From NCBI GenBank assembly GCA_021498095.1, contig JAIZWK010000001.1:2760001-2792000 (forward strand): DNA of 32,000 bases, in the 5' to 3' direction. Below the pieces are notes generated by a model that was given only the letters and a program-made list of their open reading frames with translations, had not been told where the DNA came from and searched no databases. The stretch's first letter is position 1; each line of letters opens with the position of its first letter. Of the stretch, positions 10,628-27,670 are shown one piece after another. The translations under genes and the position numbers were made by a program. This stretch comes from Candidatus Harpocratesius repetitus (GTDB taxonomy: Archaea > Asgardarchaeota > Lokiarchaeia > Sigyniarchaeales > Promethearchaeaceae).

Positions 10628-10761
10628 CATATTAATCTACCTTTATTTTTTATTAAAAAATTGAAAGAATAGTGCAATTTGGTAAAAATTTTTTGCGAAT
10701 GGAATATTCTTCACATTATCAGAATACATATTTATAGCTGTTAATTGGAGGAGACTTTAGA

Positions 10762-11898
10762 ATTAGCGAAAAAATTGAAGAAAAAATCCGCGAATTTGAA
10801 GAACGTTTAGCCCGTACTCAAAAAAATAAAGCTACACAAAAAGCAATTAATTATACTAAAGCACAAATTGCCAAACTGCGGAATGAATTGTTAAAAATTG
10901 CCAGTTCTAAAAAAGGAGGGGGAGGTGGATTTGGCGTTAAGAAATCTGGTGATGCACAAGTTGCCTTTATTGGTTTCCCAAGTGTTGGAAAATCTTCTCT
11001 TCTAAACCTTTTGACAGGAGGAAATACTAATTCAAAGGTTGCCTCTTATGATTTCACAACCTTACAAGCAATTCCTGGTATGATGGTGATAGAAGATGCA
11101 AGAATTCAATTGATTGATCTCCCTGGAATTATCTTGGGTGCTGCTGCAGGAAAAGGTCGAGGAAAAGAAATAATTGGGGCTGCCAGGAATGCTGACCTTA
11201 TTTTAATTCTAATTGCTTTTCAATATGATGGCAGTATAGATTTCGACCATCTCTTTCAAATTCGGAAAGAATTATTTGATGCCGGTATTAGACTTAATCA
11301 AAAACCCCCAAGGATTCAAATTAAAACTCAAACTCGAGGAGGAATTGGTTTTACATATAACGGCGAACAAATAATGGATAAAGATGAAGTAAAAAGTTTA
11401 ATGAATGAATTAGGCTACAGCAATGCTGCTGTTTACTTCTTTGAGCCGAATGTTACTCCCGATCAACTTATTGATTATGTATTAGGAAATCGAAAATATA
11501 TTTCTGAATTTGTGGTTATTAATAAATCAGATTTGGAACAACATACATATACAGATAAAGAAATCAGTGAAATAATTGGCCATCGCAATTGGATAAAAAT
11601 CTCTGCACTGAATGAAGACCATATTGATGATTTACGCCATCAAATTTTCCTACAATTGCATTTAATTCGCGTTTATTTGAAACCACCGGGTGAAGAAGCA
11701 GACATGGAAGAACCAATTATCTTGAAAGAAGGAGATACAATACAGAAATTGTGTGAAAAACTGCATAAAACATTTCTAAAGAATTATCGATATGCACTAA
11801 TTTGGGGCCCATCTGCGAAACACCCAGGGCAAAAATTTAATACTATGGAACATGTATTAGAAGATGGTGATGTTGTATCTATTTACTTAAAACGATAA
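10762..11898 (+). CDS. drg: DRG-family (OBG/HflX-like) GTPase with C-terminal TGS domain; probable non-canonical ATT start
   Basis: GFPSVGKS (G1), YDFTT (G2), DLPG (G3), NKSD (G4), C-terminal TGS (HVLEDGDVVSI). In-frame upstream EEKIREFEERLARTQKNKATQ...KAQIAKLR is the conserved DRG N-terminus and lies upstream of the track's TTG 10888. Confidence 0.92.
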   Translation: MSEKIEEKIREFEERLARTQKNKATQKAINYTKAQIAKLRNELLKIASSKKGGGGGFGVKKSGDAQVAFIGFPSVGKSSLLNLLTGGNTNSKVASYDFTTLQAIPGMMVIEDARIQLIDLPGIILGAAAGKGRGKEIIGAARNADLILILIAFQYDGSIDFDHLFQIRKELFDAGIRLNQKPPRIQIKTQTRGGIGFTYNGEQIMDKDEVKSLMNELGYSNAAVYFFEPNVTPDQLIDYVLGNRKYISEFVVINKSDLEQHTYTDKEISEIIGHRNWIKISALNEDHIDDLRHQIFLQLHLIRVYLKPPGEEADMEEPIILKEGDTIQKLCEKLHKTFLKNYRYALIWGPSAKHPGQKFNTMEHVLEDGDVVSIYLKR

Positions 11899-27409: not shown

Positions 27410-27670
27410 GAATAAAGCACGAATATCATATTTATATTGGAAAAATATCCTATTTTATTGTTTTTTTCTATTTGTGGTTTGAAACAAAATATCCAATGTT
27501 AATTAATGGTTATCTGATAATTATTAGGCGTGCAAGATATTTTATAGACAGATGTTATTTTTTTATTAGAATTTAAAAATTGAAAATGATAAGGTGGATC
27601 TAAAATAAAAAAAAAAAAAATCAATTCACTTTCCAATAAAGCACTAAAACCCAGTGGAACTGAATTTTTC

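Follow-up and report, generated by a model that had tools for sequence, protein, structure and literature searches.

The gene for a GTPase of the DRG/Rbg family (drg) in the Loki-type Asgard archaeon Candidatus Harpocratesius repetitus raises the question of where its translation begins. DRG proteins are conserved, ribosome-associated GTPases, and in the stretch of DNA analysed here (the window, 32,000 nucleotides, G000:C1:2760001-2792000, with G000 denoting the source genome) the conserved N-terminal part of this protein is encoded without any of the canonical start codons ATG, GTG and TTG. A first-pass annotation of the window had placed the start at an ATT codon at position 10762, directly behind a Shine-Dalgarno (SD) sequence, and not at the first canonical codon, a TTG at 10888. 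This placement is well supported by the comparison of orthologues presented below. On sequence comparison it appears quite probable that drg is translated from the AUU at 10762 as one instance of a lineage-wide habit of near-cognate initiation. The genome itself is closed and has a size of 4.36 Mb, a GC content of 31% and one contig, which includes 10 N. The parts of the locus needed for the argument are the following, in window coordinates:

10682-10695, plus strand: GTAAAAATTTTTTG, an element resembling a transcription factor B recognition element (BRE) and a TATA box (consensus CGAAAAATTTTTTG, near-palindromic), 66 nucleotides (nt) upstream of the ATT
10735-10737, plus strand: in-frame TAG, the upstream bound of the drg reading frame
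10747-10753, plus strand: SD sequence GGAGGAG, 8 nt before the ATT at 10762
10762-10764, plus strand: ATT, the proposed initiation codon at the position of the orthologous starts, presumably read as methionine by the initiator tRNA
10765-10887, plus strand: 41 codons without ATG, GTG or TTG for the conserved DRG N-terminal helix-turn-helix region, as judged from codon differences and the alignment with Rbg1 and Rbg2
10888-10890, plus strand: TTG, the first canonical start, picked by a caller of open reading frames (ORFs) that accepts only ATG, GTG and TTG
10762-11898, plus strand: full drg coding sequence, 378 codons and a stop, identified by Pfam domains and matches in the PDB

Behind the TAG the codons are CTG (10738), TTA, ATT (10744), GGA, GGA, GAC, TTT, AGA, ATT (10762), AGC, GAA and AAA. 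The earlier positions of the TAG, the GGAGGAG and the first canonical TTG, as well as that of a TTTATA at 10731-10736, were all confirmed. An ORF listing based on canonical starts gives drg as 10888-11898 with 336 amino acids. No SD is found ahead of TTG 10888, and a start there would cost 42 conserved residues, which belong to a stop-bounded translation that reads ...ISEKIEEKIREFEERLARTQKNKATQKAINYTKAQIAKLRNEL upstream of the TTG.

The translation has the features of the DRG/Rbg subfamily of Obg-like GTPases and comprises a G domain (MMR_HSR1, PF01926, 2.6e-20) with the motifs GFPSVGKSS (P-loop, GxxxxGKS), DLPG (DxxG) and NKSD (NKxD), an S5D2L-type insertion (MMR_HSR1_Xtn, PF16897, 2.9e-19) and a C-terminal TGS domain (PF02824, 8.6e-13), all found with Pfam. 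Yeast Rbg1 (4a9a, 7rr5) and Rbg2 (7nrc) were matched in the PDB with alignments over the whole length (E ~1e-77), and they have the same order of domains, that is helix-turn-helix, G domain with S5D2L insert and TGS; this likeness identifies the protein and says nothing on the start codon of drg. Residue 14 of the stop-bounded ORF is aligned to residue 5 of Rbg1 (7rr5_R) and to residue 3 of Rbg2 (7nrc_So), so that a start at 10762 would put the N-terminus of DRG at most 1-3 residues from the yeast N-termini.

The drg locus was collected from 40 relatives, and 5′ ends were compared at 23 orthologous loci, with the locus of G000 itself being counted. The relatives, coded G001 onward, are grouped into genera (among them g1 with G000, G001 and G002, g5, and g6 with G007, G011, G012 and G013) and families (f1, f3 and f4); they are not independent samples. 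At the position of 10762 the aligned codons are:

G000 (g1): ATT
G002 (g1): ATC, in a frame that opens seven codons earlier and has no canonical start ahead of the ATC
G001 (g1): ATG
G007, G012, G013 and G011 (g6): ATT
G010, G006, G005, G004 and G014: TTG
G008 and the families f3 and f4: ATG

Counted over family f1, drg starts with ATG in only two of twelve genomes, with ATT in five, with ATC in one and with TTG in four. The closed genome G011 has a TGA two codons before the ATT, which leaves this ATT as the only candidate, and the ATT is unchanged in all four g6 genomes despite differing flanking bases. In the DRG tree, G001 (ATG) stands beside the pair of G000 (ATT) and G002 (ATC), and these three are sister to a group of g5 (TTG) and g6 (four times ATT). 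ATT and ATC thus occur in two separate clades, the sisters of which carry ATG and TTG. Because of this placement of the codons in the tree, the predicted drg start has to be regarded as having turned over among ATG, TTG, ATT and ATC at one fixed position. Among the relatives a non-AUG codon at drg was found in g6 (ATT), in G002 (ATC) and in the genomes with TTG; most orthologues have ATG.

In all compared genomes the conservation of the protein (S-E-K-I/V-E-E...) begins one codon after the 10762 position, and upstream of it only bases of the SD are common. The 42 codons after 10762 differ from those of seven relatives at 15-20 codons synonymously and at 1-5 non-synonymously; in the 42 nt upstream of 10762, just 10-19 of 42 positions are identical to the same seven relatives. 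Judged by these differences, the N-terminal codons of drg are under strong purifying selection. The dominance of synonymous differences and the alignment with Rbg1 and Rbg2 also agree with the earlier view that a conserved DRG N-terminus is encoded upstream of TTG 10888.

Database homologues point to the same length. The closest named matches come from metagenome-assembled genomes of Promethearchaeota, with Candidatus Lokiarchaeum ossiferum, which has TTG at drg, being 73% identical, and 78 of the 120 closest homologues have 378 amino acids, the printed N-termini of this length starting with MSEK or MAEK. Public gene calls for the cluster of G000 and for a G002-like species have 333 and 336 amino acids, i.e., they are shortened, and the public calls for g6 have 382 amino acids as they were started from a GTG inside the SD. 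One database protein (P0003), for which no DNA was read, begins with MKFGEDQT-ISEK.

The 3′ end of the 16S rRNA of G000 reads ...GGAUCACCUCCUU. In 1628 ATG genes of this genome the spacer between SD and start peaks at 7-10 nt for GGAGG and at 8-11 nt for GGAG, and at drg the spacers to ATT 10762 are 10 nt for GGAGG and 8 nt for GGAG, which is inside the range of the ATG genes. SD-led genes are a minority in G000, in agreement with a description of SD sequences as non-prevalent in Prometheoarchaeum (PMC7531240). All six drg orthologues with ATT or ATC have GGAGG or GGAGTG 8-10 nt upstream of this codon, and in G001, which has ATG at drg, the SD is degenerate.

The element at 10682-10695, which looks like a BRE with a TATA box, is probably the promoter of drg. 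If GTAAAAATTTTTTG is the promoter, the SD lies inside the transcript. The TTTATA at 10731-10736, which had been named as a possible determinant of a transcription start close to the ATT, is a weaker candidate, being a common hexamer with 8805 copies on both strands of the genome. An element of the CGAAAAATTTTTTG type precedes drg in most genomes of f1 and f3. With up to one mismatch it occurs 15 times in G000, and three of its copies, at C1 1566255(+), 1184414(-) and 1119328(-), precede rpoA1 (the gene of RNA polymerase A′), a Nop5-like gene and an Elf1-like gene, of which the latter two have an ATG ~29-31 nt after the element. When AAAATTTTTT was considered as a general promoter motif of G000, no positional peak upstream of genes was observed, and its role as a genome-wide promoter was rejected; it marks a small set of genes instead. 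As it does not mark promoters in general, the element could be where a shared regulator of information-processing genes acts.

In family f3 the ATG of drg follows 26-34 nt after the element without an SD, which suggests that the mRNA is leaderless or has a very short leader there. In g1, g5 and g6 the start, an ATT, ATC or TTG, follows 48-73 nt after the element and has an SD. From this pattern across the genera it follows that weak drg start codons accompany an SD-led architecture. The 96-nt leader region of drg in G000 folds less well than its shuffled counterparts (z +1.26), and a search of it against Rfam yielded no match at E<=1; a structured leader or riboswitch was rejected on these grounds.

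Whether drg is special in its genome was addressed with a census of near-cognate starts (ATT, ATA and ATC, together ATH). It covered 3472 ORFs of G000 with at least 100 codons that were coding by score, and it used simple motif rules, the region searched in each ORF being the in-frame codons behind an SD and before the first canonical start. A first version with 4-mer SDs was noisy (ATT 3.05% in frame vs. 1.33% out of frame), and the census was refined with 5-mer SDs and a control for composition. At ORF 5′ ends 731 sites with a strong SD were found, of which 294 serve an ATG, 54 a TTG and 29 a GTG. At sites without a canonical start, ATT, ATA and ATC were counted 50, 28 and 19 times in frame, compared to 16, 10.5 and 8 times in the other frames, an approximately threefold difference. 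In-frame ATH codons follow strong SDs in 97 of 539 cases and control motifs with C in place of G in 72 of 583 (Fisher p=0.005). These counts suggest ~30 extra ATH starts among the strong-SD genes, as a rough estimate, which is of the order of the GTG count. An ATA behind an SD at window position 27605 (G000:C1:2787605, plus strand), 22 codons before the ATG of its ORF, was also picked up and is probably a false positive of the census.

A Pfam check of ten near-cognate candidates identified in nine of them a domain that begins shortly after the proposed ATT, ATA or ATC and upstream of the first ATG, GTG or TTG. The match starts at model position 1-2 in eight of these genes and at position 15 in the remaining one (RuBisCO_large_N). 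The nine genes encode an RNA polymerase subunit (Rpb1 domain 1), two PemK/MazF toxins, two PIN proteins, an amino-acid kinase, a GH4 hydrolase, a TrmB regulator and a RuBisCO-like protein. Their positions in G000 are:

C1 3652082(+), 1349291(+), 3422985(-), 3513579(+), 4255413(+), 2602400(+), 3934443(-) and 4162282(-): the eight genes other than rpoA1, with an SD and ATT or ATA, supported by Pfam
C1 1566379, plus strand: rpoA1 (RNA polymerase A′), with a likely ATC start behind AAGGTG

In rpoA1 of G000 the Rpb1 domain 1 begins at residue 9, and the first canonical start comes no earlier than codon 27. All three members of g1 as well as g5 start this gene with ATC and g6 with ATT, the other genomes having ATG or TTG. 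The predicted starts of rpoA1 and drg share a clade pattern of ATC and ATT, and this pattern follows the clade and not the gene. The 43 ORFs with an SD and ATH and no upstream canonical start have diverse functions and exhibit no excess of translation genes.

The additional suggestion of the first-pass annotation, a fidelity-sensing control of drg like that of bacterial infC, would make the AUU a selected, drg-specific device by which DRG synthesis increases when start stringency (e.g., the activity of aIF1) drops. This idea could draw on the rarity of ATG among the drg genes of f1, on the persistence of ATT in the four g6 genomes with their differing flanks and on the strong SD that accompanies every ATT or ATC, as opposed to the degenerate SD of the ATG congener G001, which hints at a tuned output. 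It is nevertheless very unlikely, as unrelated genes (for toxins, a kinase, a glycosidase, a regulator and RNA polymerase A′) use the same starts, rpoA1 has the same clade-restricted pattern of ATC and ATT, the ATH candidates are not enriched in translation genes, and most drg orthologues have ATG, unlike the near-universal AUU or AUC reported for infC. Moreover, DRG is not known to have a role in the proofreading of start codons. The infC-like control specific to drg is left without specific support, the ATT not being conserved across orthologues. A start further upstream, at CTG 10738 or ATT 10744, would yield a protein that is 6-8 residues longer, and both codons are indeed in frame after the TAG; in G000, G002 and G001 an ATH codon stands directly before the SD's GGA. 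Both codons, however, lie upstream of the SD or overlap with it and lack a separate SD, no protein conservation is seen in the residues before 10762 (LLIGGDFR, EIGGGRS, VFGIGLA), the TGA of G011 removes this option there, and the family norm is the protein of 378 amino acids with MSEK or MAEK at its N-terminus, all of which makes an upstream start highly improbable.

A similarly slight chance is given to a leaderless mRNA, in which the TTTATA at 10731-10736 would be the TATA box and the transcript would start on the ATT or beside it and leave out the GGAGGAG. By the usual spacing from TATA box to transcription start, a box centred at ~10734 puts the start ~26 nt further on and close to 10762, and the drg mRNA of f3, as described above, seems to be leaderless or short-leadered itself. 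Yet the SD is kept at 8-10 nt by every orthologue with ATT or ATC, in G002 nothing TATA-like is present at that distance although GGAGG and ATC are kept, and TTTATA is frequent in a genome of 31% GC. In addition, leaderless initiation leans on codon-anticodon pairing, for which AUG is expected to be favoured, a point that is posed as an open question in the literature (PMC4705826). That only a protein of 336 residues is made from TTG 10888, with a remnant frame upstream of it, or that an ATG was misassembled as ATT, is scarcely credible. The shortened public calls for the cluster of G000 and the G002-like species and the 10 N in the closed contig would fit such a reading. Against it stand the strong purifying selection on the 42 upstream codons, which encode a helix-turn-helix region seen in the structures of Rbg1 and Rbg2, the presence of ATT or ATC at this codon in six independent assemblies from two genera and the lack of an SD at TTG 10888. 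The orthologous start positions, the N-terminal conservation and the protein lengths in the databases exclude, for practical purposes, that the ATT is a sequencing error, that the gene is a pseudogene or that translation starts at 10888. A frameshift from an out-of-frame start was rejected as well: the only nearby canonical triplet is a TTG at -17 inside TTGGAG, which runs into a TGA in g6 and is absent in G002.

In the best-supported reading drg is translated from the AUU at 10762. Transcription probably starts ~25-30 nt downstream of the element at 10682-10695, which would yield an unstructured leader of ~35-40 nt. Its GGAGGAG would pair with the 3′ end of the 16S rRNA and set the P site of the 30S subunit on the AUU, which the ordinary CAU initiator tRNA would read with a single mismatch, at the third position, to make a full-length DRG of 378 residues with the N-terminus Met-Ser-Glu-Lys. 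AUU, AUC and AUA a few bases behind an SD likewise appear to start dozens of unrelated genes in G000 and its sister genera and to have lasted over genus-level time. The likely outcome for drg would be less initiation per mRNA, balanced by the strong SD and the open leader, without a dedicated switch.

Several observations weigh against a start of drg at this AUU as part of such a general habit. Against the composition-matched control the census reaches only moderate significance, with p=0.04 for ATT alone. The in-frame ATT 10744 and CTG 10738 lie further upstream of the proposed start, and three of the four g6 genomes have a GTG in frame four codons upstream, inside the SD. Furthermore, aIF1 is reported to discriminate against non-canonical start codons in Sulfolobus (PMC6237735), and by this measure an efficient use of AUU in G000 would need a permissive initiation apparatus. 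The gene of aIF1 (SUI1) in G000 (C1:2952001-2952213, minus strand; locus L032 1474-1860) has no ATG at all. A near-cognate start was considered for it and rejected, as an in-frame TTG follows 11 nt after a GGAGTG; translation of aIF1 likely starts at this TTG and gives MPKDLVGICPKC... It is likely, then, that this proofreader of start codons itself has a weak but canonical start in G000.

An initiator tRNA with the anticodon CAU is present in G000 (C1 ~751326-751433, minus strand; anticodon arm GGGCUCAUAACCC) and bears an intron; aragorn mislabels it as tRNA-Pyl(cta). A pattern search for initiator-like tRNAs (GGG-loop-CCC arms) with an anticodon other than CAU yielded none, which is a weak test as the genome is rich in introns and the tRNAs reported by aragorn number only 36 when introns are searched for and 21 when they are not. 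On this weak test a dedicated initiator tRNA for AUU was rejected, since the one initiator-like tRNA that was found has the anticodon CAU.

Starts of this kind are known from bacteria, where infC (IF3) and pcnB of E. coli begin with AUU or AUC behind an SD and the AUU of infC is phylogenetically conserved and functional (PMC4705826; PMC5499595). Like these, drg is an ordinary conserved gene with a proposed non-canonical start codon behind its SD, and with infC it also shares a relation to translation. In infC, however, the protein made from the gene proofreads start codons and regulates its own synthesis through the AUU, whereas in drg ATT and ATC are restricted to two clades, the other genomes having ATG or TTG, and initiation relies on an archaeal apparatus (aIF1, aIF1A, aIF2) and not on IF3. 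Because the codon varies across orthologues and is not particular to drg, two features of the infC class are missing.

In a review, AUG, GUG and UUG are the only codons listed as regular starts of archaea (PMC4705826). With SD-led GUG and UUG starts of archaea the drg codon has in common a pairing to CAU with one mismatch, a reliance on the SD and exchanges with AUG, and five relatives have TTG at drg. The difference is that AUU, AUC and AUA mismatch at the third position and not at the first, and that standard gene finders reject them. A systematic description of near-cognate starts in Asgard archaea was not found in the searchable literature, the only Asgard mention being the tubulin gene atubA, for which a 'rare ATT start codon' with a plausible ribosome-binding site was inferred during cloning (Sci Adv 2026, PMC13394414). 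The parallel to drg is close in that an N-terminally shortened gene call of an Asgard archaeon is extended to an upstream ATT, which restores the conserved N-terminus at a plausible spacing from the ribosome-binding site. It differs in being a remark on a single gene of another family, without comparative or genome-wide analysis.

One practical consequence concerns annotation. Callers that accept only ATG, GTG and TTG drop 42-45 conserved residues from the DRG of G000 and from that of its congener, and they shorten other proteins of G000, RNA polymerase A′ included; structure predictions and phylogenies of Asgard archaea take over such N-terminal errors. With regard to the evolution of initiation stringency, eukaryotes are stringent for AUG, whereas this Asgard family, including cultured species, is apparently tolerant of a third-position mismatch behind an SD, and this tolerance bears on how that stringency evolved. 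It is unlikely, though conceivable, that the ATH-started genes of this family of the Lokiarchaeum/Prometheoarchaeum type (drg, rpoA1, toxins and others) form a translational regulon that tracks start stringency (e.g., through aIF1), with the ATT of drg as a selected sensor. In a more modest version, initiation in the cultured archaea closest to eukaryotes may check the third position in a markedly relaxed way. The drg genes, with leaderless-type ATG, SD and TTG, SD and ATT or ATC, and ATG with a weak SD, constitute a natural set in which the compensation between SD strength and start codon in archaea can be studied.

The search for the drg locus in the relatives yielded no match of orthologue strength in many f3 genomes, while other f3 genomes hold both the orthologue and a paralogue. 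In a number of f3 genomes (including G015, G021, G023-G025, G027, G029, G031, G032 and G034) the best match is ~30% identical and represents a distant DRG-like paralogue. G000 also contains a second DRG-like gene (C1:4223140-4224318, minus strand), a paralogue that is 23% identical.

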